This document shows, one piece after another, positions 1,593-51,511 of a DNA stretch of 64,000 nt (within the stretch, counting starts at the first letter, position 1; each line of letters begins with the position of its first letter). The DNA comes from Parasutterella excrementihominis (GTDB taxonomy: Bacteria; Bacillota_I; Bacilli_A; RFN20; CAG-826): assembly GCA_963614595.1 (NCBI GenBank), contig CAVECL010000006.1, forward strand, positions 120-64,119, written 5' to 3'. Both the position numbers and the translations under genes were made by a program. The notes beneath the pieces are model-generated. The model did no database searches and was not told the DNA's origin. It saw only the letters and a program-made list of their open reading frames with translations.

Positions 1593-2942
1593 ATGGATGT
1601 CAACAAGAAACTCGGCGCAAAAAAATGGCTTGCTTTCATTTTGGTGGGGCTTGCAGGGCAATTAGCCTGGGCAATCGAGAACAATTACATCAATCTCTGG
1701 GTCTATTCTCAATCGGGTCGCGCGGATTTCATCAATTGGATGACCGTGGCTAGCGCAATCGTCGCCACCGTGACGACGTTCTTAATGGGCGCTTTGTCCG
1801 ACCGTCTTGGCAAAAGAAGGATCTTCATCGCAGGGGGCTACACCGTTTGGGGTTTCTTCGTCTTCGCTTTCGCCCTTGCTTCTCTTCAAAACGGAATGAG
1901 CATATGCGGAGAAGGGGCGAATGCTCTCCTTTGGGTCGGCATCATGAACGTAACCATCGACTGCGTGATGACCTTCTTAGGATCCACGGGGAATGATGCC
2001 TGCTTCAACGCGATGATCACCGAGCAAACCAATGAGAAGAACCGCCCGTTCGTCGAGACCGTTCTCTCCGTTTTGCCTCTCGTCGCTTTGATCATGATGA
2101 TGGGGATCGGAATGATCTTCGGGGTACCCGGCGCCAAACTAGACGCCGAAACAATGGCCGAATATGCGTCTCGCGTCTCCGTCCCATGGCTCTACTTTTT
2201 CCTTATCTGCGGCATCATCACCACTTTAGTCGGAATGGCTAGCTTCTTCATTCTCCCGAAAGACAAGGCCATCAAAGATCAAAGAAGCGGTTATTTCAAA
2301 AACCTTGCATATGGTTTTTTGCCAAGTTCCATCAAAAAGCACGGACGTTTCTACATCGCGCTCCTCGCCTTCCTTTTCTTCAATATCGCCGTCGATTCCT
2401 TCATGCCTTACTACATGGTTTACTTCCAAAGCTTTGAAGAGGTGAATTTCTATCTTGCGATGGGAATCATCGTAGCCGTGGCGGTAATAGGCTCCATCGC
2501 CGTCGGGGCTTCCCTTGATAAGATTGGGCATTTGAAAGTCCTGATCCCCGCGATTCTGATCATGGCCGGCGGCGCTCTTTTGCTCTTCCTAAACCAAGCT
2601 CCTTGGGGGCTGATTCTCGGTGGCTGCCTTTTGATGCTCGGGTATCTCATAGGCACCGCGGTTCTAGGCGCGGAGATCCGCGACCAAACCCCGGAGGAAA
2701 AAGCGGGGTCCTTGCAAGGCGTGCGCATGGTCTTCGCGGTTATGCTCCCCATGATCATCGGGAGCAACATCTCTTTGGCGGCCTTTCAGCAACCCGGTTT
2801 AGACGCTTACGGGCAGGAAACGAAAACGCCAGATCGTTGGATGTTCCTGGTGACCTGCATTTCTTGCTTGCTGACGATCGCCCCGTCCATTTGGCTTATC
2901 CTTGCGAACAAGAAAGCCAAAGAAAAGCCAAGTCAGGATTGA
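1593..2942 (+). CDS. MFS transporter
   Basis: 449 aa with a 12-helix-like profile. The MFS loop 2-3 signature GALSDRLGKRR is present. GAGG lies 9 nt upstream of the ATG. Confidence 0.85.
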   Translation: MDVNKKLGAKKWLAFILVGLAGQLAWAIENNYINLWVYSQSGRADFINWMTVASAIVATVTTFLMGALSDRLGKRRIFIAGGYTVWGFFVFAFALASLQNGMSICGEGANALLWVGIMNVTIDCVMTFLGSTGNDACFNAMITEQTNEKNRPFVETVLSVLPLVALIMMMGIGMIFGVPGAKLDAETMAEYASRVSVPWLYFFLICGIITTLVGMASFFILPKDKAIKDQRSGYFKNLAYGFLPSSIKKHGRFYIALLAFLFFNIAVDSFMPYYMVYFQSFEEVNFYLAMGIIVAVAVIGSIAVGASLDKIGHLKVLIPAILIMAGGALLLFLNQAPWGLILGGCLLMLGYLIGTAVLGAEIRDQTPEEKAGSLQGVRMVFAVMLPMIIGSNISLAAFQQPGLDAYGQETKTPDRWMFLVTCISCLLTIAPSIWLILANKKAKEKPSQD

Positions 2943-4744
2943 TATTCGACAATCGCGTATCCTTCTCCGATTTTGTTCCATTCAGAGGAGTGTTCAACGT
3001 TGTTTTTAAAATAGTCTTCGGTCATATTCACGGAGATCTTGTTTCCGGCCTGGCCTAGTTTGGTGCAGCCATAGAAGGCGCGCGAGCCGATCGAAGTGAG
3101 AGTTGAAGGGATGATGAAACCAGACAAGGAGTAAAGCTGAGAGAAAGCAAAGGAGTCGGCTTTCTGAAGGCCGGGAAGCCTCAATGTCTCCAAGGCCCTG
3201 TTTCCTCGGAAGGCGTTAGAGGTGACGTATTTTACGGAGTCAGGGAAGATTGCTTTAGAAAGAGAAGAGGAATAGTCATCTGCGCCGTCGCTGAATTTCT
3301 TAATGCCCACGAGCTCGAAAGCGCCGGGAAGAGAGGCAAGGCTCATATCGTCTTCGCCGAGTTCCGTATCGCTTCGCGAAGAAGGGGAGGAAAACTTTGT
3401 CAAAAGGTACCCGCCCCAATCAAGAGAATACTCGTAAGTAAACAGATCGCCTTTTGCCCCAGTTGCATCAATGGATTTTTGGACAACGACAGGATACAAA
3501 GTAAGCCCCTCCCTCACTTCCTTGGAAGGATCGACTATCTTCTCTTTGTTCAAATCGTTTTGCTTTTCGCTCCAAAATCCGGTGAAAACCTCGCCGCTAG
3601 ACAAGGATGCATCATCGATTTCCGACGGAAGGACGTTTTCCAAAGAAGACCCGTAGGAGACCGTTTTCTCATCAATCAAAGACCCGTCGTTGTTTCGGAA
3701 AGCAATGGTGATTTCTTCCGGGGAAGACTCGAAAACCGGGTATAGGGCACAGTCATAAAGGACATGTTTATAGTCAACGGATTTTCCTCTGATTTCACTT
3801 GGAGCGTCTTCTGCATATGCGCCTTCCCAGCCTATAAAAGAATAGACTTTGTGATCGGAGGTATAGTCAGGAAGCGTCTTCTTTACAATCGACCCATAAG
3901 CGACTTTCTCGTTTTCGCTTGCGGCAAGCAGTTCATTGCTACCTGCGTCTTTAGGGCTCTTATAGAAAGAAACCGTGTAAGTTTCAACGCTCGGGCCATC
4001 AAAGACCGCGGAAAGTTTCAAATCGTTCTTGATCTCGATATCGAAGAGTTCATCGATGCTATAAGTCTTCCCATCCCCGTCTTTGTAGCCAGCAAAGGCG
4101 TAAACCTGATAATAGTACTTTGGGAGAGTGTAATCCGACGAATCTAAAGCAAGGGCTTCTTTGGCGCTTTCTGCAGAGCCGTATTTCTCGACCAAGGCAT
4201 CCCCCAATTTGGTTCCGTGCTCAAGCGGTTCACTCGCTTTGTAAATTTCGTTATCGCCGTTTTGTATGGCGACGCTATAGGTATTGATTGTGTCGGAAAA
4301 ATGAGCAAAAACAGCGCAATTCCCCTTTATATCCTTCAAATCGACAGGCGTTTCTATTAAATCTTCCGCATTCTTTTCAAAAGAGGCGCCCCCTTCCGAG
4401 TCCGCCATCTTAAGGCTTTCTTCATCGTAATACCCCACCCAAGAATCCCAAGTGTAAGTATGGCCTTCCTTTGTTTGGCGGCTATTCTCGTAATCGATCG
4501 CTTTCCCGTCTTTTTTCACAAAGCTAGTTAACCGCGCGGTTTGGTTTGCTCTTCCTTTTACTACATATCCCTCGCCAATTTTAGAGGCTTTGCTCTTATC
4601 AAGTTTCCCGGGAGCGTATTCAATGCCGTCGTAATCCGTGTAAAACTCAATCGTATAAACGTCCGCGTCAGCCATCGTTTTGCAAGATACCAAGGCAGAA
4701 GAGAGAACAAGGAGTCCAAGTGTTGCGCGGATTTTGCGGTTCAT
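2933..4744 (-). CDS. Surface lipoprotein with F.GW-type repeat modules and a C-terminal BspA-type leucine-rich repeat
   Basis: Signal peptide plus lipobox (LSSALVSC). Recurring modules end in FAGYKDG / FIGWEG / FTGFWSE, like the Listeria-Bacteroides repeat. The C-terminus carries LRR units (AFRGNRALETLRLP, FAFSQLYSLSGFIIP, IGSRAFYGCTKL). Confidence 0.75.
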   Translation of the reverse strand: MNRKIRATLGLLVLSSALVSCKTMADADVYTIEFYTDYDGIEYAPGKLDKSKASKIGEGYVVKGRANQTARLTSFVKKDGKAIDYENSRQTKEGHTYTWDSWVGYYDEESLKMADSEGGASFEKNAEDLIETPVDLKDIKGNCAVFAHFSDTINTYSVAIQNGDNEIYKASEPLEHGTKLGDALVEKYGSAESAKEALALDSSDYTLPKYYYQVYAFAGYKDGDGKTYSIDELFDIEIKNDLKLSAVFDGPSVETYTVSFYKSPKDAGSNELLAASENEKVAYGSIVKKTLPDYTSDHKVYSFIGWEGAYAEDAPSEIRGKSVDYKHVLYDCALYPVFESSPEEITIAFRNNDGSLIDEKTVSYGSSLENVLPSEIDDASLSSGEVFTGFWSEKQNDLNKEKIVDPSKEVREGLTLYPVVVQKSIDATGAKGDLFTYEYSLDWGGYLLTKFSSPSSRSDTELGEDDMSLASLPGAFELVGIKKFSDGADDYSSSLSKAIFPDSVKYVTSNAFRGNRALETLRLPGLQKADSFAFSQLYSLSGFIIPSTLTSIGSRAFYGCTKLGQAGNKISVNMTEDYFKNNVEHSSEWNKIGEGYAIVEYQS

Positions 4745-6051: not shown

Positions 6052-6726
6052 TTAGGAAATAAAGTTTTTTACCTTCTCTTCAATCGCGTCCGCTAAGACG
6101 TCTACACCAGTGTCTTTTTTTGCCGAAACAGGAAAGAATTTCGCGTTGGGATTAAGCTTAAGAATATGGCTTTCAGCAAGATCCACATCAAAATCGAATA
6201 CAGCCTTCGCGTCCATCTTCGTAAAAGCGAAAAAATCACCCACTTTAAACATCAAGGGATACTTAAGAGGCTTGTCGTCTCCTTCAGGAATTGAAAGCAG
6301 GATGAGTTTCAAGGCTGCTCCGGTATCGAATTCCGCAGGGCAAACAAGATTCCCGATGTTCTCAAGGAAAATAATATCCAGCCCATCTTCGCCGATTGCT
6401 TGAACGCCCTCTGAAACCATTTTTGCATCGAGGTGGCATTCGCCCGAAGTATGAAGCTGAATTGTCCTAACGCCAGTAAGTTTGCCAACGGTCTCAGCGT
6501 CCACCACCGCATCCATGTCCGCCTCCATCACGCCAATTCGATAGCCTTTATCCTTCAATTTATTAATAAGGTTAACGAGCAATGTGGTTTTGCCAGAGCC
6601 GGGAGAAGACATGACGTTGATCAAGAAGACTTTCTTTTCCTTAAGTTCAGCTCTAAGCAGTTCAGCCCTGCTATCGTTGTTGGCAAGAACGGACTGCTTT
6701 ACTTTGATAACGCGTATTTCTGACAT
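6052..6726 (-). CDS. hypB: Hydrogenase/urease nickel-incorporation GTPase HypB
   Basis: Walker A SSPGSGKTTLL and the diagnostic ENIGNLVCPAEFDTG motif. 224 aa. Confidence 0.9.
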   Translation of the reverse strand: MSEIRVIKVKQSVLANNDSRAELLRAELKEKKVFLINVMSSPGSGKTTLLVNLINKLKDKGYRIGVMEADMDAVVDAETVGKLTGVRTIQLHTSGECHLDAKMVSEGVQAIGEDGLDIIFLENIGNLVCPAEFDTGAALKLILLSIPEGDDKPLKYPLMFKVGDFFAFTKMDAKAVFDFDVDLAESHILKLNPNAKFFPVSAKKDTGVDVLADAIEEKVKNFIS

Positions 6727-7057
6727 GGATATTCCCTCTCTTAATGCCCGTATATATTAAAGGAAATAACAAAAGACGAACCAAGAAATTCATTTTAAGT
6801 TCAAGACAAGTCAAAAGCCAATTAAAAAAAGAAGAGGGAGGTGTATGTATTTTTAAAACTTGATTTCATAATCATTTTGGATAAATTGACGATGTCAAAA
6901 TTCTCTTATGCCATAGTTCATTTCATTTTAATTCAGACAACGGCGAAACTTTTCCGATTCTCCAAATCGTAGAATCGCTTTTCTACGCACGCGATACGCA
7001 CACTAGAGTGCGTTTGACAAAGGTTTGCATAAAATCCCATCGTCGAGATTTGCGGCC

Positions 7058-8170
7058 ATGTTATTCGAAAAGTTCAGAAAAAAGAAAAACGAGAAAAAAG
7101 GGGATTCTCCTGATACGCAAAATGCGGAAGCGCAAGAAAGAAGCGTAAAGGGAGAGGCATGCGTGAACTCCGGGGAGCAAAGTGCCCAAACAGAAGAGGC
7201 AAAAACCAGCCCTGACGCAAAAAAGGAAAAGGCTCCGATAAGCAAGGGGCTCATCGTCACATCCTCAATCATTGGAGTCCTGGCGGTCGCCCTAGGGGTA
7301 GTCGCCGGATTCCTGGCTCACAGTTTCTTCAACACCGCCGGAGGCGATTACTCAAACGTCGACGCGAACGCTCTAACAGACGACATCGCAAAGACGCGAA
7401 AGAAATACGAGCAAGCCAAAAAAGCAGGAACCCCCCTAGAAGAAGCCCTGAAACCATGCGAGATGGTAAACATATCGCTTGACCTCTTCTCCTCCTTGGA
7501 ATCAACAAAAACAGTCGGGCTTGGCTCGGCTTACTCAATGGGCGTCAACCAGATCATCCAGTCTATCCAAATCAAGTGTGGCGATAAGTACTTCGAGGAA
7601 TCGAATTCCACATCGGCCTTCGTGAAACTCTATGACAGGATGTACCAAGAAGAGGAAACCACAAAAACCTATTGGGGCAAAAGCATCGACTACTCTTCAC
7701 ACGAAGAAAAAACCTACACGAACGAGGAATACGCTGAGCTCATGGGACGCAAGGTGAGCGACCCTATGATCTACATAATCTCAACGAAAACCTCGATCAC
7801 AGACGAAAGCAAAGTTAAATCAGGGAGAGGCGCCTCAAGGATTGTCAAAGAGAAGAACGGCTACACGGTTGACCTCGAGCTTCAAAGGACGAAGTCCGTC
7901 GTGAACTATGTGAAGCAGATGAAAAACATCTCCGGTCTCACCGGATACCCAACCTTCGAATATTGCCATTTGACCTTCCACCTAGACGAAAGCCTAATGC
8001 CGCTCGATTACACCTCCTACGAGAAATACCAAGCGACAAAGAAAGAAGTTGGAATATCCACCACGATCGAAGGGAATCTGACCACTTACTTCTATCACGG
8101 GGAAACTTACGAAATACCAACCCTAGAAACCGAAACCCAATCCGAATATCAAAACTTAAGCGCCAATTGA
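7058..8170 (+). CDS. Single-pass membrane protein, unknown family (first gene of the giant-paralog module)
   Basis: ORF 7025..8170 trimmed to the ATG at 7058. The start is uncertain because there is no clear SD. Lys/Glu-rich N-terminal head, one TM helix (GLIVTSSIIGVLAVALGVVAGFLAHSFF), and a ~270-aa ectodomain with no recognisable motif. Confidence 0.7.
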   Translation: MLFEKFRKKKNEKKGDSPDTQNAEAQERSVKGEACVNSGEQSAQTEEAKTSPDAKKEKAPISKGLIVTSSIIGVLAVALGVVAGFLAHSFFNTAGGDYSNVDANALTDDIAKTRKKYEQAKKAGTPLEEALKPCEMVNISLDLFSSLESTKTVGLGSAYSMGVNQIIQSIQIKCGDKYFEESNSTSAFVKLYDRMYQEEETTKTYWGKSIDYSSHEEKTYTNEEYAELMGRKVSDPMIYIISTKTSITDESKVKSGRGASRIVKEKNGYTVDLELQRTKSVVNYVKQMKNISGLTGYPTFEYCHLTFHLDESLMPLDYTSYEKYQATKKEVGISTTIEGNLTTYFYHGETYEIPTLETETQSEYQNLSAN

Positions 8171-8188
8171 ATCTGAAAGGAAACGATT

Positions 8189-11100
8189 ATGAAAACAAAC
8201 AAAAGCCAAAAACATCTAAGTTCTAAGAAAAAGGCCCTCCTCTTCAACTCCGGACTGTTCCTAGCCCTCTTCGGCATTACCGCAGGAACCACTTATTTGA
8301 TGATTCCAAAGAAAGGAATGGCGGAAGATGAGGACATCAGCAATGTCGATGACGGCGATAACGGCGACATCACTTTAACAGGCAAGCAACGTTTCATTTC
8401 GAACCTCACCAATAGCGCCACCTCGGGCTTGAACCTCAAGTTCGACGTTTTGGACGCCTACTTCCCAGGCAAAGACAAAGATGACACCTCCAAAGGAAAC
8501 CTCATCAATGGCAAGGGCACCCAAGTCGCATTCGCGATGGACGAGATATCTTTCCATGGCATCAGCCTCGGGCTGAAAGCCAAGCTAGATTATAATGGCT
8601 ACAAAAGGCAGCTCAGCCTCGCCAAGTGCCTTGATGATATCTATTTCGCAATCAATGATTTGGACAACGAGACCTACAACTTCAAATACAAAGCCTCAAT
8701 CGAGCCCAAAGTCACCGGCGAACGCGACGAGACGACCGGAGGCATCCTCCAATACGAATACGGCGACGTCGACTGGATCATCTCCGATGTTTTGGAGATC
8801 CTCTCGAATGGGGGCATCAAAGTCGATTTCCCCAAAATTGACTTAAACAGCTTGGGCTCCTCTTCCGATTCTTCTTCAGGCAGCTCCGATGAAGATGGCT
8901 CTAATGCCATGTCGGGCATCTTGAGTTCGCTAAACGATATGGAGGAAGACACCGCCCATTCTTACATGACTTGGAATCTTCCTCTAGGCGAAGAGACCCT
9001 CTCCATCGGTTTCACCTACGATAGCGATTATTACCTAAGCGGCATCGACTTTCCCGCGAAGACTTTCGATGGCTCCGAGCAGGGAAGCTATTCCATCAAA
9101 AACGGCGATGCCTTGGTCGGAACGATTCGCGCAAGCGCGACTGTCGAAACCGGCGCCGAAGCAATCTCCTGGACCTCCTTCATCCCCGGAGAGATCGCCG
9201 AATATCATGACATCAAGGACAGCGCCTCGCTTTTCCGCAAAGTCGCGCGTTACATCGCCAACCCCCAATTCGGCCTCAAGACCACGAACTCTTTAAACAT
9301 CAATTCCGGGAACGGCCTTGCTCTCACCCATTATAAAAAAGATGGCGACAGCGTGACTTCCGATGTCATCGAAACCGCTTCGCTCGACCTCTCCGCCTGC
9401 GCTGATTTCTCAGGCGGCCTCCAGAACTTCCTCGCGGATATCTCTTTCACCGCGGACAACGCTTCGGCCTATATCTCCGCGGCTTACCTCGAGGATAACG
9501 CTTACCTCAACATCGATGACCTTTTGATGGCCAAAGTCAGCAAAACGAATCTCGATGCCTTGTTCGCCAAGACCGTCACTTCGCTTTCTGAAGATGGCGA
9601 AGTTGAAGAAAGCGTTGAGGAAGCAAGCGCCATCACCGACTTGATTTCCACCGTCCTCGACAATTTCCCCACCATCAAAAGCTTCGCCGAAGGACATTAC
9701 GAGAAAGCTTTTGACTTTATCAAGTCCATCGACGGGACCGACAATAACCTCAGCATCACATTCGATCTAAGCCCAGTGAAGATCGATGGGGAAGTCACCG
9801 TCAGCATCGACGGCACCTACGCGGACGAAGATAATGGCGTCGACACCTATCTCAGCGGCATTACCTTCAACAGCGTTAAGCTGAGCGCTTTCCAGTTAGA
9901 TGGGACTTTATCCTTGGATGCTTATTCCCTGCCTAGCGTCGAAACAAGCAGCTATGACGAATTGATCCATCTTCCTGGCATCAAAAACCAAATCGAAGAA
10001 GTGACCTCCTCAAAAGAAGCGGCGCTCTCCTTAACGGGCAACGTCAAAACAGGGAAGATGGACGCTCTCGGCAAAGAGACCGGGGTCTCCTTCTCTGGCA
10101 ATCTCGGTTTCTCCTACGATAAGAAATCCGCCGGCGTTTCCCTAACCGCGAATCAGGTCTCCAAAAACTATTCGCAAGACCACCACTTCAAGTTCGCTCT
10201 TTCTGGTGACGGCACCGATTTCACCGAGACCGCGTTCAAATACGACTCGGTGAATGACGCTTCCATCGATAGCGAATCCGGCTTAGACAGCGAGGGCAAA
10301 GCCAGAACCAACCCTCGTTCCTCAAGCCCCGTCACCGGGAAAATGTCCATTTCTTCGATGAAAGACATCATCTCCACCGTCAAGAGCGTCATCCCCGAAG
10401 AAGAAGAGGGCGAAGCCTCCTCCTTCCAGAAGATCGCCAGTTCCATTGGCGGCCTCGTTGGAGGCGATTTGGCTGGCGACCTCATCAACAAGAAATATTC
10501 CGGCCTCTTTGAAAAGAAGATCCTCGCCGAGAAAGCAAGCCTTGGCGGAGATGAGAACAAGTTCGTTCTCAACGGCGATCTGTTCGGCTTAGACGAGAAC
10601 CCCGTCGTTACCATTTCTTACGAGGCGAACAGCGAAGACGCCAACGGCGGATTCAAGAGCCTCAACTTCGCGATGAGCAAAATGAGCATCGGGCTTGGCG
10701 TCGAAGCCACGAAGGACGTCAATGAAACCATCCTCAACCCTTTGAAGGGCGAAGACACCTCTTCCTATACGGATTTCAACACCGTGAAGACCCTCGTCGA
10801 ATACGCGACGGGATCCACGAAGCTGGGCAAGGTCGCTTCAGGCGATTCCTCCACTTATGACATCTCGCTCAACGTCGCCCTTAATATTGGCAAAACGAAG
10901 ATTAACCTCATCGGAGTGAGCCTTAACCTCGCGAGCGAAAAAGACTACGTCAAAGCCCATCTTTCCATTCCTTATATGCCGCTAATCAAAGGAGTGAACG
11001 CGCCTGATAGCTCCGTTTATTTCCGTGACCACGAATACGAAGGAAGGCGCGCCGTCGACCTCTATTATTCCTATAAAAAAGGCGATGCGAGCTACGGCGA

Positions 11101-11821
11101 TCTCTATATCACCCGCAACTCCAGCTATGGCAAAGTCACCGAAGTCAAAGACACGGTTCAGCTGACCGGCAAAGATCTCATCGAGAAGACGGGAGACGAA
11201 GGGGGAACCTATTCTTACAACGGCCTCGGTTGGCTTCTTGAATACGTTCTCGGCATCAACGAAAGCTACCTTAGGAAGGATAACGCCCCCGCAGCAGAAG
11301 AGGGAACCGTCGCCGAAGCAAGCCAAGAAGAAGGCAGCAATCTCTTTGACAACGCTTTCCCCCATCCGGAAGACTTCTTGAAACAATACCAATATGACGA
11401 GGCGAACATCTCTTGGTCGCTCGGCGTCGACGTGGGCTCCTTGCTCGATGAAAGAGCCTTGCTTGGCGACGCGATGATCTCTATTTCCGGCAAGAATGTT
11501 GCTTCCAGCGATGCCTCGACCTCCTGGAAGACTTTAAGCAACCTCAACATTAGTTTCGGCTTAGTCCTCGGCAACCCCGATGGCTCCCATCAGATTGTCC
11601 CGGCTTCCGCGGAAATCGAGCTGGCTCTCGATAATGTCTCTACAGGCGTCTACCAAAACACTTGGGAAAACGTCTCCGTGAATGACTTCACCTCCGTCGT
11701 CTCTTATGACGATAAGGGCGATGTGAGCTTTGCCTATGGCGACGATTACACGAAGCATTATAAGAAGGATGGCGATTCTTCCTTCTTGCCAGGCAACTAT
11801 TACGTTGGCGTGACCTGCTAA
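8189..11821 (+). CDS. Giant (1210 aa) N-terminally TM-anchored surface protein, unknown family; paralog of 11823..15299
   Basis: Uninterrupted 3.6-kb ORF with GAAAGGAAA upstream. N-terminal signal anchor ALLFNSGLFLALFGITAGTTYLMI. Ser/Asp/Gly/Thr/Asn-rich. Colinear with the next ORF along its full length. Confidence 0.9.
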   Translation: MKTNKSQKHLSSKKKALLFNSGLFLALFGITAGTTYLMIPKKGMAEDEDISNVDDGDNGDITLTGKQRFISNLTNSATSGLNLKFDVLDAYFPGKDKDDTSKGNLINGKGTQVAFAMDEISFHGISLGLKAKLDYNGYKRQLSLAKCLDDIYFAINDLDNETYNFKYKASIEPKVTGERDETTGGILQYEYGDVDWIISDVLEILSNGGIKVDFPKIDLNSLGSSSDSSSGSSDEDGSNAMSGILSSLNDMEEDTAHSYMTWNLPLGEETLSIGFTYDSDYYLSGIDFPAKTFDGSEQGSYSIKNGDALVGTIRASATVETGAEAISWTSFIPGEIAEYHDIKDSASLFRKVARYIANPQFGLKTTNSLNINSGNGLALTHYKKDGDSVTSDVIETASLDLSACADFSGGLQNFLADISFTADNASAYISAAYLEDNAYLNIDDLLMAKVSKTNLDALFAKTVTSLSEDGEVEESVEEASAITDLISTVLDNFPTIKSFAEGHYEKAFDFIKSIDGTDNNLSITFDLSPVKIDGEVTVSIDGTYADEDNGVDTYLSGITFNSVKLSAFQLDGTLSLDAYSLPSVETSSYDELIHLPGIKNQIEEVTSSKEAALSLTGNVKTGKMDALGKETGVSFSGNLGFSYDKKSAGVSLTANQVSKNYSQDHHFKFALSGDGTDFTETAFKYDSVNDASIDSESGLDSEGKARTNPRSSSPVTGKMSISSMKDIISTVKSVIPEEEEGEASSFQKIASSIGGLVGGDLAGDLINKKYSGLFEKKILAEKASLGGDENKFVLNGDLFGLDENPVVTISYEANSEDANGGFKSLNFAMSKMSIGLGVEATKDVNETILNPLKGEDTSSYTDFNTVKTLVEYATGSTKLGKVASGDSSTYDISLNVALNIGKTKINLIGVSLNLASEKDYVKAHLSIPYMPLIKGVNAPDSSVYFRDHEYEGRRAVDLYYSYKKGDASYGDLYITRNSSYGKVTEVKDTVQLTGKDLIEKTGDEGGTYSYNGLGWLLEYVLGINESYLRKDNAPAAEEGTVAEASQEEGSNLFDNAFPHPEDFLKQYQYDEANISWSLGVDVGSLLDERALLGDAMISISGKNVASSDASTSWKTLSNLNISFGLVLGNPDGSHQIVPASAEIELALDNVSTGVYQNTWENVSVNDFTSVVSYDDKGDVSFAYGDDYTKHYKKDGDSSFLPGNYYVGVTC

Positions 11822-11822
11822 G

Positions 11823-14800
11823 ATGCGCGGAAAAGAAAAAGCAAACAACTCTTTTTGGGAGCGGAGAAAACCCTTCGCTCCTTTGAAGCACTTGGCTCTA
11901 GTCGCTTTGGCTTTTTCTTTGTCTTCCTGCGCCTCTTCTAGCGTCGCAAAAGCGAATCGCCAAGAAAGCGAGACGGTTGAGGAAAGCCACACAAGCGAAA
12001 GCGTTGGGGCGAAACGCCTCGCGGAAAGCCTCACGAATTCCCTTACCTCCGGCTTGTCGCTCAAGCTTGACCAAATGACTTTGAAGGCGGACGAGAATAA
12101 CGTCTTCGAATTCAGCAACGGCTCTTTGTCCTTTGACTTAAAGGAGCTGTCGCTTCATGGCTTGAACATGGGCTTGCAGGCTGAGGTTGACTATAACGCC
12201 AGCGGAGGAAGGTCCATCGACGCCAGACTCGTTGATGACGAGCTTTATTTCGCTTTGGAAGCCCCAGGATCTGACGACGTCACCTATAATGTAGCCTATA
12301 AAGTTTCCACCGCTTCCTATCGCTACGGCGAAGAAAACGGCCGCGACTCCGTGACCGGAGGCATCACTCAGTACGAGTTCGGCAGGCTTGATTGGGTGTT
12401 GGAAGATATTCTCCAAATCCTTTCTTCCTTCGGCTATGAGGTAAAGCCCAACTTCAAAGACACTTCCACGATTGACTTTGGAAAAATCTCCTCTTCTTTG
12501 GATGATCTGAACGAAATCGACGCAGAAAGCCATTATTTCGTTTGGAATTTGCCAATTGGGGAGAACATTTATTCCGTCGGTCTGCAAGGCGATGAGGACT
12601 ACTATCTCTCCAAGATTGATTTTCCTGCCAAAGGCACGGGAGCATCGAACAAGCTAAGCAACGGCATGGAGCTAAGCCTCTCGGCTTGTTTTGATTATAG
12701 CGGAGCTCAAATAGCTGCCCCGGAGAACGCTTCTTCTTATCTTTCCTTAGATAACTCAATTGACCTTTGGGAGAGGATCGCCACTTATGCCGGCAAGCTT
12801 TCTTTTGACGTCTCCACAACCCACACGGAAAGCGGAAACGAAGAAGAGGGGCTGTTGCTCACGCACCATGAAGATACCGTCGAAAGCACCGCGACCACAA
12901 TCGGTCACCAAGGTTTCGACGAGAAGCTCACCTTCTCGCTGAGCGGCGGAGCCAATTTCCAAAACCAAAAAATCAACGATCTTTCAATCAATGCCGTTTT
13001 CAAAGGGGAGAAGCAAACAAAAAAGCTCGCCGGGCATTACGTTCAGGGGAAAGCCGACAAAGAAGCCTATGTCAACGTAAACAACATCCTAAAAGTAAAG
13101 ACCAGCAAAACAACCGCCGATGCTTTCTTCAGCGCTTTCGCAGATCTATTAGGCGACGAATCCATCAAAAACGAATACCTCTCTTCCCTGTTTTCTTCCA
13201 TTGGCTCCATCAGCGACGCCTTCGAAAGCGTGAAGAACAGCCTCATCGGCAAAGACATCTCCGAAAAGCATTACGAGCATTTCTTAGAGGCTTTGATTTC
13301 CCTAGAAAGCAAAGACAATCAAATCGAGGCGACTTTCGATTTCAGCAAAGCAGGGGGAGAAGGCAAACTGATTTTCCGTTTGAGCAGCAGCGATTTCGCT
13401 TTGGCTTCCCTTACTTTCGATGGCTTCTCCATCGGGGGGTTCGGAGTAGAAGGGACTTTGAAAATAAGCGATTACACAGGCTCTGCCTCCTTTGCCGAAG
13501 ACGAATACGAAGAAATGGATCATTTGCCGACTTTGACCGACCAAATCCAAAATCTATATCAGCATCATTCCATGAAGGCGAACGTTCAAGGCTATGTCCT
13601 TGACCGCGGCACAACCGCAGTCAGCAGCGATTCCCGTTTCGCTTCCATAAACGGCAAAGTCATTACCGAGCAAGGATTCAGCCTTGAAGGAAGCTTTGCT
13701 TTTAACCTGCAAGAAAAAGCGGCGCGCGCGAACGCCGTGGTTCTCGACCGCAAAGCGGATTATCTAAATGAGCACGCCATCGCGTTGCAGTTAGACGGGG
13801 AAATTGGCTCAAGCGCCGAAACAGGCGACATGCTCTTCTCTTATGATTCAAGCAACACTTTGAAAAGCGGCGGCGCCGAAGGCTACAAAGATTTGAATTA
13901 CGGAAACATCAGTGAGCCCGATGCGGAAACGCTTTATGGCAAGTTCAGCGTCTCCTCTTTGAATGACATCTTAGAGCTCGCGACGACTTTGCTCAGCTCC
14001 GACGATCCTCGCTTCACCAAATTCACCTCCGCCGCCAACACTTTGGCCACAACTCTCGTCGCTAAAATCTCCCAAGGCCAATTCGCTCCGCTCCTCAGCG
14101 AGAAAATACTCGTGAGCGTCGCTCGCACAGGCGACAAGATTTCCGCGGTTATCTCAAAGGATGTTTTAGGCAGCGAGGAAGACGTTCCTTTAAATATAGA
14201 ATTCAATGAGGATGGGATCTCCTCCATCGACTTCAATTTGATTACCGATTCTAAAGAAATTTATTTCAAAATCGATGCAGAAGTCCCTCAAACGACTCTT
14301 TCCAAAACGGATTTGCAAGTTTCTGATCTCCAATCGAAGCGGGATACGATGACGGATTTCTCTTCGCTTTCAACGTTGCTAGACTACGTCCTCGGATCTG
14401 CGACTTTAGGGGAAGATGAGAATAACGTATCAACTTATCACTTAAGCGGGACGGCAAAATTGACTATTCTTAAAGTGTTTAACAAAGACGTCCCGTTCTC
14501 GGTTTGGGTTTCACTAAACGGGGCCGAAGTGAAAATGATAGGAACGATTGAAGTTCCAATGATAGTCGGAGTGAACGGAGGAGGCGGGGCCTTTGGCGGC
14601 GGGACTCGTTACGTCGAATTCTACTTCCACACCTCTGGAGACGATTCAGACGGCACCATCTTTTTCCATCGCGTAAACCAAAAGCAAACCGCCGGAATCA
14701 CGATTGATAACATTTCAGAAGACTGGGCCAAGGTCAAGGTCAGCGATTTCAATGCAAACATCATGAACTGGATGCTGGGTTACGTGATGGGCATGGGCTC

Positions 14801-15299
14801 AACCATCATGGATCAGATTACCACGACCGATTCGTCCCAAGGGTCTTCTTTGCATGGCGAGGAGTTGATTTCCTCCTACTCTCACTCCGAGAGCGGCGGA
14901 ACGCACACTTGGGACGCGAAAATGGACCTGAGTTCCTTGTCCAGCTCTTTGACTTCGCCTTTGGAGGTCAAGATTGAGGGAAAAGAGGTTAATGTTGGCA
15001 ATGAAAAGCAAAAGACTTTGACGGCTATTAGCGGCAATGTCGGCTTGGTTTCCGTAATCACAATTTCCTTCAGCGCAACTCTAGCCAACGTCTCTACCGG
15101 GACCTATGTTTCCGTTTGGAATAGGGGATCCGGACCGTCCGAAGGCCAAATCACGCTGCGCTCGCCCAATAAGAAAAAAATCAACACAACCAATCTGCAA
15201 GCGGCCGACGCCTATGCGACCAACTATTATGATAACGGGTACGTGACGAGCGGCAATTTCGCTTCCGCCACCACTTACGTGACCTACCCCATCAGTTAA
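11823..15299 (+). CDS. Giant (1158 aa) lipoprotein, unknown family; paralog of 8189..11821
   Basis: The ATG lies 1 nt after the upstream TAA. Signal peptide with lipobox (LALVALAFSLSSC). Shared blocks with the upstream protein run from the N- to the C-terminus. Confidence 0.9.
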   Translation: MRGKEKANNSFWERRKPFAPLKHLALVALAFSLSSCASSSVAKANRQESETVEESHTSESVGAKRLAESLTNSLTSGLSLKLDQMTLKADENNVFEFSNGSLSFDLKELSLHGLNMGLQAEVDYNASGGRSIDARLVDDELYFALEAPGSDDVTYNVAYKVSTASYRYGEENGRDSVTGGITQYEFGRLDWVLEDILQILSSFGYEVKPNFKDTSTIDFGKISSSLDDLNEIDAESHYFVWNLPIGENIYSVGLQGDEDYYLSKIDFPAKGTGASNKLSNGMELSLSACFDYSGAQIAAPENASSYLSLDNSIDLWERIATYAGKLSFDVSTTHTESGNEEEGLLLTHHEDTVESTATTIGHQGFDEKLTFSLSGGANFQNQKINDLSINAVFKGEKQTKKLAGHYVQGKADKEAYVNVNNILKVKTSKTTADAFFSAFADLLGDESIKNEYLSSLFSSIGSISDAFESVKNSLIGKDISEKHYEHFLEALISLESKDNQIEATFDFSKAGGEGKLIFRLSSSDFALASLTFDGFSIGGFGVEGTLKISDYTGSASFAEDEYEEMDHLPTLTDQIQNLYQHHSMKANVQGYVLDRGTTAVSSDSRFASINGKVITEQGFSLEGSFAFNLQEKAARANAVVLDRKADYLNEHAIALQLDGEIGSSAETGDMLFSYDSSNTLKSGGAEGYKDLNYGNISEPDAETLYGKFSVSSLNDILELATTLLSSDDPRFTKFTSAANTLATTLVAKISQGQFAPLLSEKILVSVARTGDKISAVISKDVLGSEEDVPLNIEFNEDGISSIDFNLITDSKEIYFKIDAEVPQTTLSKTDLQVSDLQSKRDTMTDFSSLSTLLDYVLGSATLGEDENNVSTYHLSGTAKLTILKVFNKDVPFSVWVSLNGAEVKMIGTIEVPMIVGVNGGGGAFGGGTRYVEFYFHTSGDDSDGTIFFHRVNQKQTAGITIDNISEDWAKVKVSDFNANIMNWMLGYVMGMGSTIMDQITTTDSSQGSSLHGEELISSYSHSESGGTHTWDAKMDLSSLSSSLTSPLEVKIEGKEVNVGNEKQKTLTAISGNVGLVSVITISFSATLANVSTGTYVSVWNRGSGPSEGQITLRSPNKKKINTTNLQAADAYATNYYDNGYVTSGNFASATTYVTYPIS

Positions 15300-15307
15300 G
15301 GAAGAAT

Positions 15308-15336
15308 TTGCCCAAAGGTTTTCCCGCGCCTAAAAT
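15308..15336 (+). promoter_or_regulatory. Candidate sigma-70 promoter giving a leaderless mRNA for the XRE-membrane regulator
   Basis: TTGCCC, 17-nt spacer, TAAAAT. The -10 box ends 6 nt before the ATG at 15343. No usable SD. Confidence 0.35.
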
Positions 15337-15342
15337 AGAGGC

Positions 15343-15969
15343 ATGGAAAACCTTGCCCTAACGGTTGGAAAGAATCTCTCGGCCCTGCGCAAAGCCAAAG
15401 GCCTTACGCAGCAAGAGCTCGCTCAGCAAATCAATTACAGCGATAAATCCCTTTCCAAATGGGAGCTCGGCTATGCCTTGCCCTCTGTCGACGTTATGCT
15501 AGACATCGCTCATTTCTATGGGGTCACCATTGATTATTTGACGCAGGAGCACCTTCCGGAAGCCATTGAGCAACAAATCGCAGAAGATAAGAAGCAAGAC
15601 GTGAACGCTTCTAACAAAGCCGTTATCCTCGCGATGACTCTAACTTTTGTTTTGCTGGTCGCGATGTCGATCTTTTTCTCCTCTTATTTTATTCACGAAG
15701 GAAAAGACCTCCCCATCGGCATCTGGTCAGTCTATGTTTGGATGATTCCGATCATGTGTTTCCTTTCTGCTTGGGAGGTGCGCTGGTTCTATCATAACCG
15801 CGTCGCTTTCTGGGTTCTTGCAAGTTCTTTCCTATGGTCTCTCCTTTTAGCGTTCTGCTTCTACTTTCAATTTTTTAGGGTGCCGAGCGAGAACGTTTGG
15901 TTCATCTTGGTCGTCGGAATTCCTATACAGATCATTTTGGTTCTTCTTGCCAAATATAAGCGCGTCTAA
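15343..15969 (+). CDS. Membrane-tethered XRE-family HTH transcriptional regulator
   Basis: The N-terminus LSALRKAKGLTQQELAQQINYSDKSLSKWELGYALPSVDVMLDIAHFYGVTIDYL is a classic HTH_3/XRE domain. It is followed by four hydrophobic helices. Confidence 0.85.
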   Translation: MENLALTVGKNLSALRKAKGLTQQELAQQINYSDKSLSKWELGYALPSVDVMLDIAHFYGVTIDYLTQEHLPEAIEQQIAEDKKQDVNASNKAVILAMTLTFVLLVAMSIFFSSYFIHEGKDLPIGIWSVYVWMIPIMCFLSAWEVRWFYHNRVAFWVLASSFLWSLLLAFCFYFQFFRVPSENVWFILVVGIPIQIILVLLAKYKRV

Positions 15970-16031
15970 TCCTTGCAAGGCAAGTCTTCCTCCATTAGGC
16001 TTCTAGGTGATTTTTTCATGGAGGCAAAATC

Positions 16032-17804: not shown

Positions 17805-17810
17805 AAGAAA

Positions 17811-17849
17811 GAGGGAAAACGCGTTCGCGTCCTCCCTCTTTTTTGTTTT
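17811..17849. terminator. Bidirectional intrinsic terminator between pepF and clpB
   Basis: GAGGGAaaACGCG-tt-CGCGTccTCCCTC hairpin. TTTTTTGTTTT follows on the plus strand and a T-rich run follows on the minus strand. Confidence 0.8.
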
Positions 17850-21940: not shown

Positions 21941-23173
21941 TCAGATTCCCGCGACGGAAGCAGAAATGATTAAGGCGAGCAAGGAAGTCGCGTTCACCCC
22001 AGCGTACATCAGCCAATTCTTCAAATCCAGCTTGAAGGAATGGTTGTACAGGGAAAGCACAACATAATAGAAACCACCCGTCCAAATGAAATTCGTGAAC
22101 TCCAGGACGAAGAACGCTCCGCTGGAATAGCTTAAGAGGGAAGACGTGAGAGCCCCTTCGCCAAGAAGGCAAGTTAGGAAGGCGAGGTGAGGGAGCAAAG
22201 TCGCGAAGAAATTGCGGGGGCGCTTCTCCCCAGCGAACTCTCCGCCCGGCTCTTTGCCTAGCAAGACCAAAGTCAAAGCGCCTCCGCCTAAAAGCAGGAA
22301 GGAAATCGATCCCACCCAAAGGCTCCAATGGGAGTCGGAGAGGAAGGCGACGCATGCTTCCCAGCAATCAGACATGTTTCTTTCTAACGTCCCGATCGTT
22401 CCTTCAATCAAAACCATCGGCACATAGAAAGCCGGCATATCAAAGAAAGAATAGCCATAGCCAAAGATTTTTTCCATCCAAACGGAGTCGCAGTTTCTGC
22501 CTCCCGCCACATAAATTGTCACGGGGATAAGCAAGCAAAGCACGAAATGCCCTGCAATCATCGCGACGATGCCCTGCAGAACATTGCTTCCCTGCCCGAT
22601 TAAAAAGCAGTTGATAAAATACAAGGTCATCACAACCACCGCACCTAAGGGCCAAGCCAAGAAATACCAGCCAAAAGAGCCGGTGGAGGCAAAGAAATCC
22701 GTCAAATATTCAGCGTTGGCCTCCGCCACTGCTCTAGCGGAGTTGACGGAGACGATTTGCTTGAGAATCGCGCCAAGCGAGCCGAAAAGGTAGGCCGTCA
22801 GATAAAAAGCAAGGAGAATCGCTCCCATCAAAAGGATGCGTGTTTGTGAGATTTTCCCATCTTTCACCGGCAAAGACAAAAAGCAGTCTGCGCGCGTTTT
22901 GCCATAGCGGTGAGAGTAGGCGAAGAAAGGCATGACGCAGGCAGCGAGCATCGAAGGAATCATCATCAAAGCGACGCAGGAGAACGGGTTGCGGTTAAGC
23001 TGATACAGCATGCGGAAAGAAAGGTAAGAAGAGCTGTCGGAAATTTCGACGCGAATATAAGGCTCCGCGTTGAGTCCCACGATAAGGGTCGTAGTAGCCA
23101 CAAGCGCGCCGATCGCGATGATCATCGGCAGCCATGCTTTGAGTTGGAAAAGGACAAACTGTTTAACTTTCAT
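21941..23173 (-). CDS. Polytopic membrane protein, probable permease partner of the adjacent ABC ATPase
   Basis: 410 aa with about 10-12 hydrophobic helices. The start lies 1 nt after the ABC ATPase stop. Confidence 0.7.
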   Translation of the reverse strand: MKVKQFVLFQLKAWLPMIIAIGALVATTTLIVGLNAEPYIRVEISDSSSYLSFRMLYQLNRNPFSCVALMMIPSMLAACVMPFFAYSHRYGKTRADCFLSLPVKDGKISQTRILLMGAILLAFYLTAYLFGSLGAILKQIVSVNSARAVAEANAEYLTDFFASTGSFGWYFLAWPLGAVVVMTLYFINCFLIGQGSNVLQGIVAMIAGHFVLCLLIPVTIYVAGGRNCDSVWMEKIFGYGYSFFDMPAFYVPMVLIEGTIGTLERNMSDCWEACVAFLSDSHWSLWVGSISFLLLGGGALTLVLLGKEPGGEFAGEKRPRNFFATLLPHLAFLTCLLGEGALTSSLLSYSSGAFFVLEFTNFIWTGGFYYVVLSLYNHSFKLDLKNWLMYAGVNATSLLALIISASVAGI

Positions 23174-24475: not shown

Positions 24476-25201
24476 ATGTATTCCGAAAAAATCATAATCG
24501 ATTCCAATGAGGTTGACCCCTTCCTCGATTTGTCTATTCCAAGCCTATTCCGGTTGCTTCAAGCGGTCGCGGGAGCGGGCGTGGAGGCAATCGGGGCAGG
24601 CAAAGCAGAGACAACGGACAAGGGTTTGATGTGGGTTTTGACCCGCATGGACGTAGAAATAAGCAAAATGCCCCGTTATATGGACGAGATTGAATTGACC
24701 ACTTATCCGGGAGAGCAGATCGGCTGTTTCTACTTCCGCCACTTCTTTGCAAAGGACAAAAACGGGAAGATCCTATTCCGCGTTTCCTCAACCTGGGCTT
24801 TGCTTCAGGCATCTAGCCGCAAGGTCGTGATGCGCTCCCCTTTTCCCCATCCCTTAACCCCTGAAAAAGACATTGAAGAACTTGGCCGTCCCGAGAAGCT
24901 CCTAGCACCCGCGAGCATGGTTGAGATTGAAAAGAGAAAGATCGCCTATTCGATGTGCGATCTAAACGGCCATTTGAACAACACCCGTTATCTAGAGTTG
25001 ATTGTCGATGTGAAAAGGCGAGCCTTCTACGAAAAACACACACCTGTCTCCATCGTTTTGAATTTCGAGAAGGAAATTCAAGAAGGCGAAGAGGTTTCAA
25101 TTTGCCTGTCCTCTCAAGAGGAAAACCCCTACACCATCGTCGGGAAAGTGAATGGAGAAGAACGTTTCTTGGCGCGTCTGCAGTTCAGGGAAAAAGATTG
25201 A
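24476..25201 (+). CDS. Acyl-ACP thioesterase
   Basis: 241 aa. GLMWVLTRMDVEISKMPRYMDEIELTTYPGE and the second hot-dog half match the acyl-ACP thioesterase (FatA/B-like) pattern. Confidence 0.7.
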   Translation: MYSEKIIIDSNEVDPFLDLSIPSLFRLLQAVAGAGVEAIGAGKAETTDKGLMWVLTRMDVEISKMPRYMDEIELTTYPGEQIGCFYFRHFFAKDKNGKILFRVSSTWALLQASSRKVVMRSPFPHPLTPEKDIEELGRPEKLLAPASMVEIEKRKIAYSMCDLNGHLNNTRYLELIVDVKRRAFYEKHTPVSIVLNFEKEIQEGEEVSICLSSQEENPYTIVGKVNGEERFLARLQFREKD

Positions 25202-25202
25202 G

Positions 25203-26039
25203 ATGAAAGACAAGCTAATCCGCTACCTTGGAGCGGAAGAGGAATACATCGTCAAGGTTGCTGTTACGACGCGTCTTGTCGCTCACGCGCAGAAGATCGG
25301 GAACTATGGCGAAAATGCCATCGTCTATTTAGGAAATCTTTTAACGGGAGCTTTGCTGATGGAAGATTCCGTAAAAGACAGCAAGGAGAAGTTGACCTTA
25401 GACTTGGAAGGGGACGGTCCTTTAAATAAGGTAGTCGCAATTGCTGACAGCAAAGGAAACGTTAAAGGTTTCGCCGCAAAACCGACCTCAACCGGCGGAA
25501 TAGGCAATGGCTTTTTAGGAGTTACGAAAGATCAAGGGCTCAAGACTCCTTATCGCACAACGATGCCTCTTGTCATAGACGACGTCGAGAATAATCTTAT
25601 GTACTACTACGCCGGTTCCGAGCAGCTCCCCACTTTCTTTTCCTTGGGAGTTGCATTGAACAAGAAGAAAGAAGTCGCCTATAGCTATGGTTATATGGTC
25701 CAAGCTTTGCCCTTTGTCAAAAAAGAAATCACGGAGAAAATAGCGGACAACATAGGGAAAGGGCCTTCAAAAAAGGAGATCCTCGCCCGCAGATTGTCCC
25801 CCGAAGAGATTGCCTCGCATCTTCTAGAAGGATTAAGCCGAACGAAAACCGAAGAAAAAGAGGTGCGTTTCCATTGCGGCTGCTCAAAAAGGAAAGCCCT
25901 AGCCAGCTTAAAGAAAGCCGGGAAAAACGAGCTCGAAGCGATGGTCAAAGAAAACAAGTCTGTTAAAGTCATCTGCGGCTCTTGCTTAAAAAAATACGAA
26001 TACTCAATCGATGAGATAAAGTCTTTGCTTGGCGACTAG
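25203..26039 (+). CDS. hslO: Redox-regulated chaperone Hsp33
   Basis: ORF trimmed to MKDKLIRYLG. The C-terminal zinc switch is FHCGCS...VICGSCLKKYEY (CxC...CxxC). The ATG lies 1 nt after the upstream TGA (TGAGATG). Confidence 0.9.
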   Translation: MKDKLIRYLGAEEEYIVKVAVTTRLVAHAQKIGNYGENAIVYLGNLLTGALLMEDSVKDSKEKLTLDLEGDGPLNKVVAIADSKGNVKGFAAKPTSTGGIGNGFLGVTKDQGLKTPYRTTMPLVIDDVENNLMYYYAGSEQLPTFFSLGVALNKKKEVAYSYGYMVQALPFVKKEITEKIADNIGKGPSKKEILARRLSPEEIASHLLEGLSRTKTEEKEVRFHCGCSKRKALASLKKAGKNELEAMVKENKSVKVICGSCLKKYEYSIDEIKSLLGD

Positions 26040-27022
26040 TTTTTGTTCCTAAGATAAATATCGAAGGCTTGAGAAAGGTAGTTTTTTACATCCGAGGCGA
26101 AGTCCTCATCGATTTCAGAAAGCCGTTTATCTCCAACAAAGGGGTCAATATAACGTTTCTTCGCGGAGATTCTAAGATATCCTTCTTTGGCAAAGACGCT
26201 CTTATCAAGCTCTTTCATTTCGGTATAAGAAAACCATTCCCCTTTCAAGGGAGAGGAAATCAGTTTGGCGATGACCGCGGACTCCTCCTGGTATAAGTCG
26301 CCCTCATCCAAAATGCCAAGCTGAATACTTTTCTTAATGAGGCTAGCCAAAATTTCCATAGAGTAACGATCTTCGTCGCAGCAATAGATGCGCCCCAAGG
26401 ACAAGGCAATACGTCCAAAGCGTTTCGCTGGATCAAGCGAGGTGAAACCAAGTTCCCCGTTAGGCAAAGCGACCACAGAATCGTAAATCTCTTGTACTTC
26501 GTCACGGCCTAAGCGAAGAAGGTTCAAGGCGTTAGACAAAGTATATTCCAAACGATCCGCGGATAGCCTCGGCGAATCGTTATCCGCGATTGGGTATTTA
26601 TGATAATCATTTACATCCTCAGATTTAAGATCCAGAAAACCCAGCAATTCCTGGATATCTTTGCTTTTTGCAATGATTTCTGAAGTTCCGATTTCCGTTG
26701 ATTCCTGAGATTCGTAGTCACCGTGAAGGAAGTCAATTACATGGGCGAAGCAAGAGCTAGCGATATCGTGATATAGACCCGCGAGCGCCTGCTTGGGATC
26801 ATTGGTAAAACGCCACACAATCTCCCCAACTCCTAGAGAATGAATATATCTCGAATAGGAATCAATGCCTTTGAAAAGAGGAAATGAGGTGTACTCCAAA
26901 CCACAATTCATCCCAATCTCCTTAAGACGAAGCAGTTCACTTGACCGAACTGCTTTTCCCCACCAAAAAGGGAGGTCATTTTCGGGGAGATAGGAAATTG
27001 TTTCAAGTTGTTTTCTTTTCAT
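26036..27022 (-). CDS. HD-domain metal-dependent phosphohydrolase
   Basis: H...HD signature (YIHSLGV...GLYHDIAS). 328 aa. Confidence 0.7.
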   Translation of the reverse strand: MKRKQLETISYLPENDLPFWWGKAVRSSELLRLKEIGMNCGLEYTSFPLFKGIDSYSRYIHSLGVGEIVWRFTNDPKQALAGLYHDIASSCFAHVIDFLHGDYESQESTEIGTSEIIAKSKDIQELLGFLDLKSEDVNDYHKYPIADNDSPRLSADRLEYTLSNALNLLRLGRDEVQEIYDSVVALPNGELGFTSLDPAKRFGRIALSLGRIYCCDEDRYSMEILASLIKKSIQLGILDEGDLYQEESAVIAKLISSPLKGEWFSYTEMKELDKSVFAKEGYLRISAKKRYIDPFVGDKRLSEIDEDFASDVKNYLSQAFDIYLRNKN

Positions 27023-51418: not shown

Positions 51419-51511
51419 TGGCGGAGGCGTCGGGATTCGAACCCGAGCACCGGCATACACCGATCTAACAGGTTAGCAACCTGCCCCCTTCGGCCTCTTG
51501 GGTACGCCTCC
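51419..51511 (-). tRNA. tRNA-Ser (anticodon GCU)
   Basis: Folded by hand. Acceptor GGAGGCG/CGCCTCC, 3-bp D stem, anticodon loop UUGCUAA, long variable arm, T-loop UUCGAAU. CCA is encoded. Confidence 0.9.

Follow-up and report, generated by a model that had tools for sequence, protein, structure and literature searches.

What could a bacterium do with two giant, adjacent and related surface proteins that carry different membrane anchors? This question is raised by genes A and B, which lie on the forward strand of a 64,000-nucleotide (nt) stretch of contig CAVECL010000006.1 (assembly GCA_963614595.1), hereafter called the window. Gene A (8189–11821, +) encodes a giant of 1210 amino acids (aa) predicted to be anchored by a transmembrane (TM) helix, and gene B (11823–15299, +) a giant of 1158 aa of the lipoprotein type. 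An initial annotation, made from the letters of the window, gave coordinates for both giant open reading frames (ORFs) that match the ORF calls exactly. It saw only A and B, but the pair belongs to a larger conserved module, in which gene C lies upstream and gene D downstream. The overall reading that we favour, and whose chances we put at about even, is that of a giant duplicated within a C-giant-D module, which would form a lipid-handling surface assembly with A and B as partners and D as a regulator.

A and B are full-length paralogues under strong purifying selection

When A and B are compared by BLASTP with compositional adjustment, a single colinear high-scoring segment pair is obtained (A 65–1159/B 62–1099), with 27% identity and 45% positives across its 1148 columns (E=1e-77). 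The two giants had initially been described as full-length colinear paralogues, on account of seven matching pairs of blocks; this one end-to-end segment bears out the description, and all seven pairs are found within it, in the order claimed. The similarity is real and not one of low complexity: when 28 A- and B-type proteins are aligned, 82 columns, spread along the whole length, are invariant.

Selection was assessed by the ratio of non-synonymous to synonymous substitution rates (dN/dS), using as a reference L003, the nearest relative with unsaturated dS (loci of relatives are numbered L001 to L038). The ratio is 0.057 for A and 0.062 for B, as compared to 0.124 for C and 0.039 for D, and close comparisons give 0.06–0.08 for A and B alike. 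Both A and B are under strong purifying selection. B is nevertheless the faster-evolving of the two, with 53% identity to its counterpart in L001 vs 64% for A.

Tandem repeats and simple-sequence tracts are absent from positions 6700–16000. A variable surface-antigen family, which such large surface proteins might have represented, is rejected, as there are no repeats, each locus has a fixed complement of one A and one B, and dN/dS is 0.06–0.08. The statement that A and B are not antigenically variable copies stands on the same grounds: no repeats, no extra copies and a low dN/dS.

The two giants carry different membrane anchors

The leaders of A and B were called from sequence pattern alone. 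In A, a Lys-rich stretch (residues 1–15) is followed by a hydrophobic segment of 24 residues (residues 16–39, ALLFNSGLFLALFGITAGTTYLMI; 8234–8305, +) and then by Pro40, and this N-terminus contains no Cys. In B, a basic n-region and a hydrophobic core lead to a lipobox, LSS-C36 (in the context AFSLSS-C36), so that residues 1–36 (HLALVALAFSLSS then C36; 11823–11930, +) have the pattern of a lipoprotein signal peptide. L-S-S-C conforms to the lipobox pattern of Gram-positive bacteria; at 22 aa, the n-region of B is too long for the strict G+LPP pattern.

That A keeps a TM anchor and B has a lipobox, as initially proposed, thus remains a pattern-based call, and the same contrast is repeated in the orthologues, bar four loci. 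Among the B-type orthologues, the lipobox-equivalent Cys is lacking only in a subclade that includes Ca. Alloenteromonas. The Cys-less B proteins of this subclade (L018:13475–16879, L019:6969–10379, L020:9926–13324 and L025:9920–13330) start with a hydrophobic leader, such as LLLFPSLLLASYSP, and the mode of anchoring or secretion of B has apparently changed again in these four loci.

The direction of the first change can also be approached. The TM-type motif F-G-x-[ST]-A-x-x-T-[YF]-[FLY]-x-x-P, located inside or just past the helix, is present family-wide, even at less than 25% overall identity, and all the sampled outgroups that have a single giant are TM-type. As the motif is conserved across the family, it argues for the helix of A being a retained, sequence-constrained and uncleaved anchor, and not a cleaved signal peptide. 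As the motif extends to the single-giant outgroups, which are all TM-type, the TM anchor is ancestral and the lipobox derived, in line with the early proposal that the lipobox had been acquired. Neither lgt nor lspA is among the annotated ORFs of the 64-kb window, the only part of the genome that the analysis covered. Such a pair of paralogues, one TM-anchored and the other lipid-anchored, offers a clean natural case of a duplication followed by a change of anchor.

A and B belong to a four-gene module

In the window, the four genes of the module are all on the + strand, in the order C-A-B-D. Gene C (7058–8170, +) encodes about 370 aa when read from the ATG at 7058, the mechanical ORF start being a TTG at 7025, and gene D (15343–15969, +) encodes a protein of 208 aa with an XRE-type helix-turn-helix (HTH) and a hydrophobic C-terminal half. 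The intergenic gaps are 18 nt between C and A, 1 nt between A and B and 43 nt between B and D, the A/B junction (11819–11825, +) reading ACC TGC TAA G ATG CGC around the stop of A and the start of B. From C to the end of pepF, no terminator-like site with more than three G-C pairs is found on the + strand, and the sole strong hairpin is located 3' of pepF (17808–17841). Because of the 1-nt junction between A and B and of the lack of a strong terminator-like site inside the module, it is suggested that C, A, B and D are co-transcribed, possibly with coupled translation of A and B. Terminator-like sites number 25, vs 16.3 ± 4.0 expected, and the promoter scan gives no excess of promoter-like sites over chance.

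C has a disordered N-terminus, one TM helix (at about residues 65–92) and an extracytoplasmic domain of about 270 aa. It is found directly upstream of the giant or giants in every C-bearing locus examined, including the loci with a single giant. D matches the Pfam family HTH_3 (PF01381) over residues 13–66 (E=2e-15), which places it in the XRE family, and its hydrophobic C-terminal half can be read as about four TM helices; D is predicted on this basis to be a membrane-embedded XRE regulator. In every locus of the window's clade, D is the gene that immediately follows B. Further away, D is next to the module or not far from it in L028, L029, L032, L035 and L036, often in divergent orientation in the single-giant loci (L032, L035 and L036) and at times several kb off or on the opposite strand (L028, L029, L032 and L036). 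No D is present next to the giant in L031, where only a weak HTH_3 match occurs about 2 kb away, or in L038.

The duplication is old and is maintained in the window's clade

Word-indexed searches retrieve 18 A-type clusters (63–96% identity) and 23 B-type clusters (51–99% identity), together with one distant B-like lipoprotein; none of them has a Pfam domain or a name. The conservation of the locus was followed by scanning GTDB species, each represented by one genome, which yields 25 loci whose ORFs were compared with A, B and C. Seventeen of these loci are complete, and 16 of them are distinct, L001 and L006 being the same contig. All 17 contain a C-type gene (about 310–340 aa), one A-type gene (1119–1225 aa) and one B-type gene (1132–1195 aa), in this order, and the loci truncated by contig ends are all compatible with it. 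The C-A-B order persists in clades that are only 24–33% identical to the window. No third copy of the giant is present in any locus of the clade.

In the distant loci of the clade, the first giant scores better against A and the second one against B. The A and B clades come out as sisters in a neighbour-joining tree of 142 members of the family, and orthologues score higher against their own type even at about 27–33% identity. Since the clades are sisters and the own-type scores hold in distant loci, the duplication predates the sampled lineages and has been kept without loss. Both the age and the retention of the duplication, as initially asserted, are supported by these data, with one A followed by one B in every complete locus of the clade and with strong purifying selection.

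The family is much wider than this clade. An exhaustive profile search of metagenomes gives 237 clusters at 50% identity, of which 132 have E-values under 1e-30. None of the ten distant members that were looked up has a name, and none of the eight that were scanned has a significant Pfam domain. Eleven distant members were examined on their contigs (L028–L038). Seven of these loci (L031, L032, L033, L035, L036, L037 and L038) contain C and a single giant, two (L028 and L029) contain C and two giants, and L034, which ends at contig edges, gives no copy information. The last one, L030, has a 4042-aa lipoprotein-type member (L030:10001–22129), whose middle module (profile positions around 450–600) is repeated about nine times, and no C-like gene is detected in it. 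The surrounding synteny is common to L035, which has a single giant, and L028, which has two. Copy number is thus one or two family-wide and is fixed at two in the window's clade.

The expectation that relatives would always carry both copies in the same order therefore holds in the window's clade, but neither for the distant single-giant loci nor for L028, where the order is reversed and the lipoprotein-type copy comes first. When clade-specific hidden Markov models that omit the first 70 residues are applied to L028 and L029, a leaning towards B is seen in the lipoprotein copies and one towards A in the TM copies. However, many single-copy proteins also lean towards B with the same models, and the neighbour-joining tree is unreliable at such depth.

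An obligate A-B heteromer, as initially proposed, is plausible, judging solely from the fixed 1:1 copy number, the fixed order and the 1-nt junction. In a mirror-tree comparison, the A-B correlation is r = 0.98, and r is 0.93–0.97 for all the other pairs of module proteins. As all four proteins of the module correlate alike, the correlation reflects their shared phylogeny only and is uninformative on a co-evolution of A with B. Alternatively, A and B could be independent, sub-functionalised paralogues, each working alone or with C on a different cargo or at a different distance from the membrane, and adjacent only because they share an operon. Such an independence would fit the relatives that manage with a single giant, the faster evolution of B, the alteration of the anchor of B and not of A in one clade, and the reversed order in L028. 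We nevertheless regard it as unlikely: neither copy is lost in any sampled genome of the clade, the 1-nt junction suggests a coupled expression, and both proteins keep the same 82 invariant columns over their whole length.

C, and possibly A and B, resemble lipid-binding proteins by fold

Sequence searches are silent on the nature of these proteins. For A, B and C, no match to Pfam or NCBIfam is found at E≤0.1, including to the LolA, LppX_LprAFG and MucB_RseB families, nothing meaningful comes from PHROGs and PADLOC, and profiles of A/B and C have no match in a PDB sequence search. The only matches of the family searches are at noise level (Cas8a, E=1e-3, and V-ATPase subunit I, E=4e-3).

Structure prediction is more informative, in particular for C. 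In its AlphaFold2 (AF2) model, the ectodomain has a predicted local distance difference test score (pLDDT) above 90 from residue ~95 and consists of 11 strands and helices, and the predicted TM-score (pTM) is 0.72. When this model is compared with known structures by Foldseek, it matches LprG (3mh8/3mha; probability 1.0, target TM-score (TMt) 0.42–0.47), Borrelia LolA (8t5t/7tpm), LolB (1iwm) and EPD-BCP1 (TMt 0.52), the probabilities of this set ranging from 0.99 to 1.0 and TMt from 0.35 to 0.52. Weaker matches are to the barrel of ApoB100 and to MTP. All these structural matches are lipid binders, EPD-BCP1 being carotenoid-binding. The model thus assigns a LolA/LolB/LprG-like fold to C with confidence.

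For B, the AF2 model, built from 28 sequences, is mostly beta and less certain (mean pLDDT 68, pTM 0.47). From its secondary-structure string, B can be read as about four modules (~60–325, 327–581, 583–861 and 869–1135), in each of which about six strands precede a helical segment and about five further strands come after it. LolA (2w7q, probability 1.0), RseB (2v42, 0.99), LprG (3mh8, 0.98) and further LolA/LolB entries, with listed probabilities of 0.96–1.0, are the sole high-probability matches of B in the PDB; their TMt is 0.29–0.40 and their root-mean-square deviation (rmsd) 10–15 Å. These weak matches are no more than suggestive of a LolA/LprG/RseB-like fold for B. C, and putatively A and B, are unannotated members of a broad class, the membrane-tethered LolA/LprG-like proteins, and no literature on the A/B/C family was found among reports on LolA-like proteins in Mollicutes or Gram-positive bacteria.

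Two simple derivations were tried and rejected. Internal repeats are not supported in A/B, as the best probability of an all-pair hhalign comparison of the four modules is about 6%, and C is not supported as a single-module relative of A/B, with an hhalign probability of 0.2%.

By fold, the LolA/LolB/LprG/RseB superfamily is thus the nearest known group, since it provides the best structural matches of C and the sole high-probability ones of B. LolA has 11 strands and helices, arranged as an unclosed antiparallel beta-barrel with a helical lid, and 11 strands and helices are also predicted in C. LprG and LolB are, like C, A and B, tethered to a membrane on its extracytoplasmic side. On the other hand, the members of this superfamily are about one-sixth the size of A and B, which seem to chain about four modules; A, B and C have no sequence similarity to members in Pfam, NCBIfam or the PDB; and they sit in a module made of C, one or two giants and a regulator, in monoderm and probably wall-less bacteria, which have no outer membrane towards which lipoproteins would be sorted. 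The LprG-Rv1410c (P55) system of mycobacteria, in which a tethered LprG-fold binder and membrane proteins move lipids or glycolipids outward, could be a model for C. Its partner is however a pump of the major facilitator superfamily (MFS), whereas the MFS gene of the window (1593–2942) is unlinked to the module in distant loci.

Proteins of the AsmA/TamB type are anchored by an N-terminal TM helix, beyond which about 1000 mostly beta residues extend outside the cytoplasmic membrane. The giants share with them only this N-terminal anchor and the long beta-rich body: A and B have no Pfam match to AsmA, TamB or DUF490, no such chain is among the top fold matches of B, and AsmA-like proteins and TamB span the periplasm up to the outer membrane, which is not expected in these bacteria.

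The presence of RseB among the top structural matches of B (probability 0.99), together with the conservation of the membrane-embedded HTH protein D beside the module across deep divergence, raises the possibility of an envelope sensor, in which C, A and B would be RseB-like ligand sensors controlling D, by analogy with RseB and RseA over sigma-E. However, two proteins of 1150–1200 aa and C far exceed the needs of known sensors. The distance or opposite orientation of D in L028, L029, L032 and L036 is a better fit to a local regulator than to a stoichiometric partner, and D is missing beside the giant in L031 and L038. We consider a sensor of this kind very improbable, and keep D as a regulator of the module.

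The host is probably a wall-less gut bacterium

Among the relatives, curated names are limited to Ca. Enteromonas and Ca. Alloenteromonas. Ca. Enteromonas belongs to family CAG-826 of the GTDB order RFN20 (PMC8035907), and most species of CAG-826 are predicted to lack peptidoglycan genes altogether (PMC10868615). The host of the window thus probably belongs to RFN20-like, peptidoglycan-deficient gut Bacilli. In the annotated part of the 64-kb window, all genes are housekeeping ones and none is a wall gene, which decides neither way. Contig titles are of little help: contigs of metagenome-assembled genomes with a near-identical C-A-B-D locus (L003–L027) are titled Paludibacteraceae, Alistipes shahii, Lachnospiraceae, Oscillospiraceae, Erysipelotrichaceae, Staphylococcaceae and others. 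Such mutually inconsistent titles suggest a mis-assigned taxonomy in public records and are probably unreliable, since near-identical loci bear conflicting names.

Bacteria of the RFN20 type are common and uncultured in the animal and human gut, and some of their families are predicted to be devoid of peptidoglycan. To our knowledge, the way in which wall-less cells acquire or organise lipids is known only from a few pathogenic mycoplasmas. The module, which has four genes and is conserved and strongly constrained, had no annotation, and, three of its proteins possibly resembling lipid binders, it could provide a concrete candidate for a membrane-lipid machinery.

A lipid-handling surface assembly is proposed

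The following scenario could account for the data. A and B would both descend from a large extracytoplasmic protein, tethered to the membrane, whose gene underwent a single ancient tandem duplication. The ancestral giant was TM-anchored, and, in the lineage of the window, A kept the TM helix and B became a lipoprotein. Both have since been kept in single copy and in the same order, under strong purifying selection. They would act as non-redundant partners, probably forming a hetero-oligomer derived from an ancestral homo-oligomer. The assembly would bind hydrophobic cargo, lipids or glycolipids, and relay it between the environment and the cell membrane, with C as the membrane-proximal acceptor or donor and D as a local regulator tuning the expression of the module. 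That C, A and B form one extracytoplasmic assembly handling hydrophobic cargo, at a surface that is probably wall-less, has in our opinion a chance close to even, or a little short of it.

The nearest functional analogue of this proposed role is P116 of Mycoplasma pneumoniae, a lipid-extracting surface protein of about 1000 aa that forms a homodimer and whose fold was called previously unseen (PMC10023570, PMC12487902). Like A and B, it is a large surface protein, and it belongs to a wall-less bacterium that depends on external lipids. P116 has however no C- or D-like partners, and it resembles A and B neither in the PDB sequence search nor among the top 50 Foldseek matches of B. A more specific proposal is that C, A and B constitute a previously undescribed machine for lipid scavenging or for lipid/glycolipid export at the surface of wall-less gut Bacilli from RFN20 and related groups. 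Its building blocks would be LolA/LprG-like modules, with a single-module C at the membrane and a heteromer in which two giants of four modules each differ in their anchors. It would be under the control of a membrane-embedded XRE regulator sensing the state of the membrane, and would be a functional analogue of P116 of independent origin. This tentative version is in our view rather doubtful.

Some of the neighbours of distant members encode lipid enzymes. In L036, the giant is followed by genes for PAP2, GT2, a PlsC-like acyltransferase and an ABC-FtsX fusion (L036:10208–16934); in L033, a GDPD gene lies divergently upstream of the giant, with ABC/MacB_PCD/FtsX genes also upstream (L033:3278–6741); and in L030, the 4042-aa member is followed by a class-3 lipase (Lipase_3) gene (L030:22143–23597). 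These neighbours weakly favour a lipid role.

Several points weigh against the assembly that we propose. Each of these lipid-enzyme neighbours is found in one locus only, and the neighbourhood of the module in the window, with its hypB-like, carD-like, pepF and clpB genes, is mute on lipids. There is no direct evidence for a contact between A and B, the mirror-tree correlation being equally high for all pairs. The fold assignment of A and B is weak (pTM 0.47, TM-scores of 0.3–0.4, rmsd of 10–15 Å), and none of A, B and C shows a sequence link to the LolA, LprG and RseB families. The wall-less state of the host comes from the taxonomy of its relatives alone. Finally, a LolA-like fold is no proof of lipid binding: GerS of C. 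difficile, a LolA-like lipoprotein, is reported to activate an amidase allosterically, and so to work as an enzyme activator and not as a carrier of lipids (bioRxiv 10.1101/2021.06.21.449279).

A and B could alternatively be a structural surface coat or a pair of adhesins, standing in for functions of the wall such as shape, protection or attachment to mucus or food particles. In this case there would be no lipid cargo, and the two anchors would serve to place two related layers. Their large, beta-rich and membrane-tethered ectodomains, with no catalytic motifs or known domains, would suit this role, as would a host lineage predicted to lack peptidoglycan and sortases (PMC10868615) and the presence of an LRR_5 surface protein nearby in the window and in L001. 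However, exposed adhesins or coat proteins would be expected to show a higher dN/dS than ~0.06, and neither repeats nor copy-number variation are observed. A coat would also leave aside the invariable partner C, with its confident LprG/LolA-like fold, and the lipid-enzyme neighbours present at several distant loci. There is in our view only a small chance that A and B are of this type, and the lipid-handling assembly is retained as the preferred reading.

Other features of the window

Besides the module and its neighbours, the window contains genes for an acyl-ACP thioesterase and PlsX (24476–25201, +, and 43572–44576, +, respectively); the organism therefore has at least part of the acyl-ACP/acyl-phosphate route to phospholipids. 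An ORF of 603 aa (2933–4744, −) weakly matches the leucine-rich-repeat adhesin HupY/LrrG, and its counterpart in L001 has LRR_5. It may be another surface protein, which is near the module in the close clade only. A single ORF (35440–36414, −) combines domains of a Vsr mismatch endonuclease, DUF559 and a NUDIX hydrolase. Four ORFs of 327–580 aa (21941–23173, 26036–27022, 36421–37959 and 56613–58358, all −) match no Pfam family at E≤1e-5. The window also carries two tRNA genes, at 51422–51511 (−) and 58443–58531 (+), which are about 89–90 nt long and belong to the class with a long variable arm.

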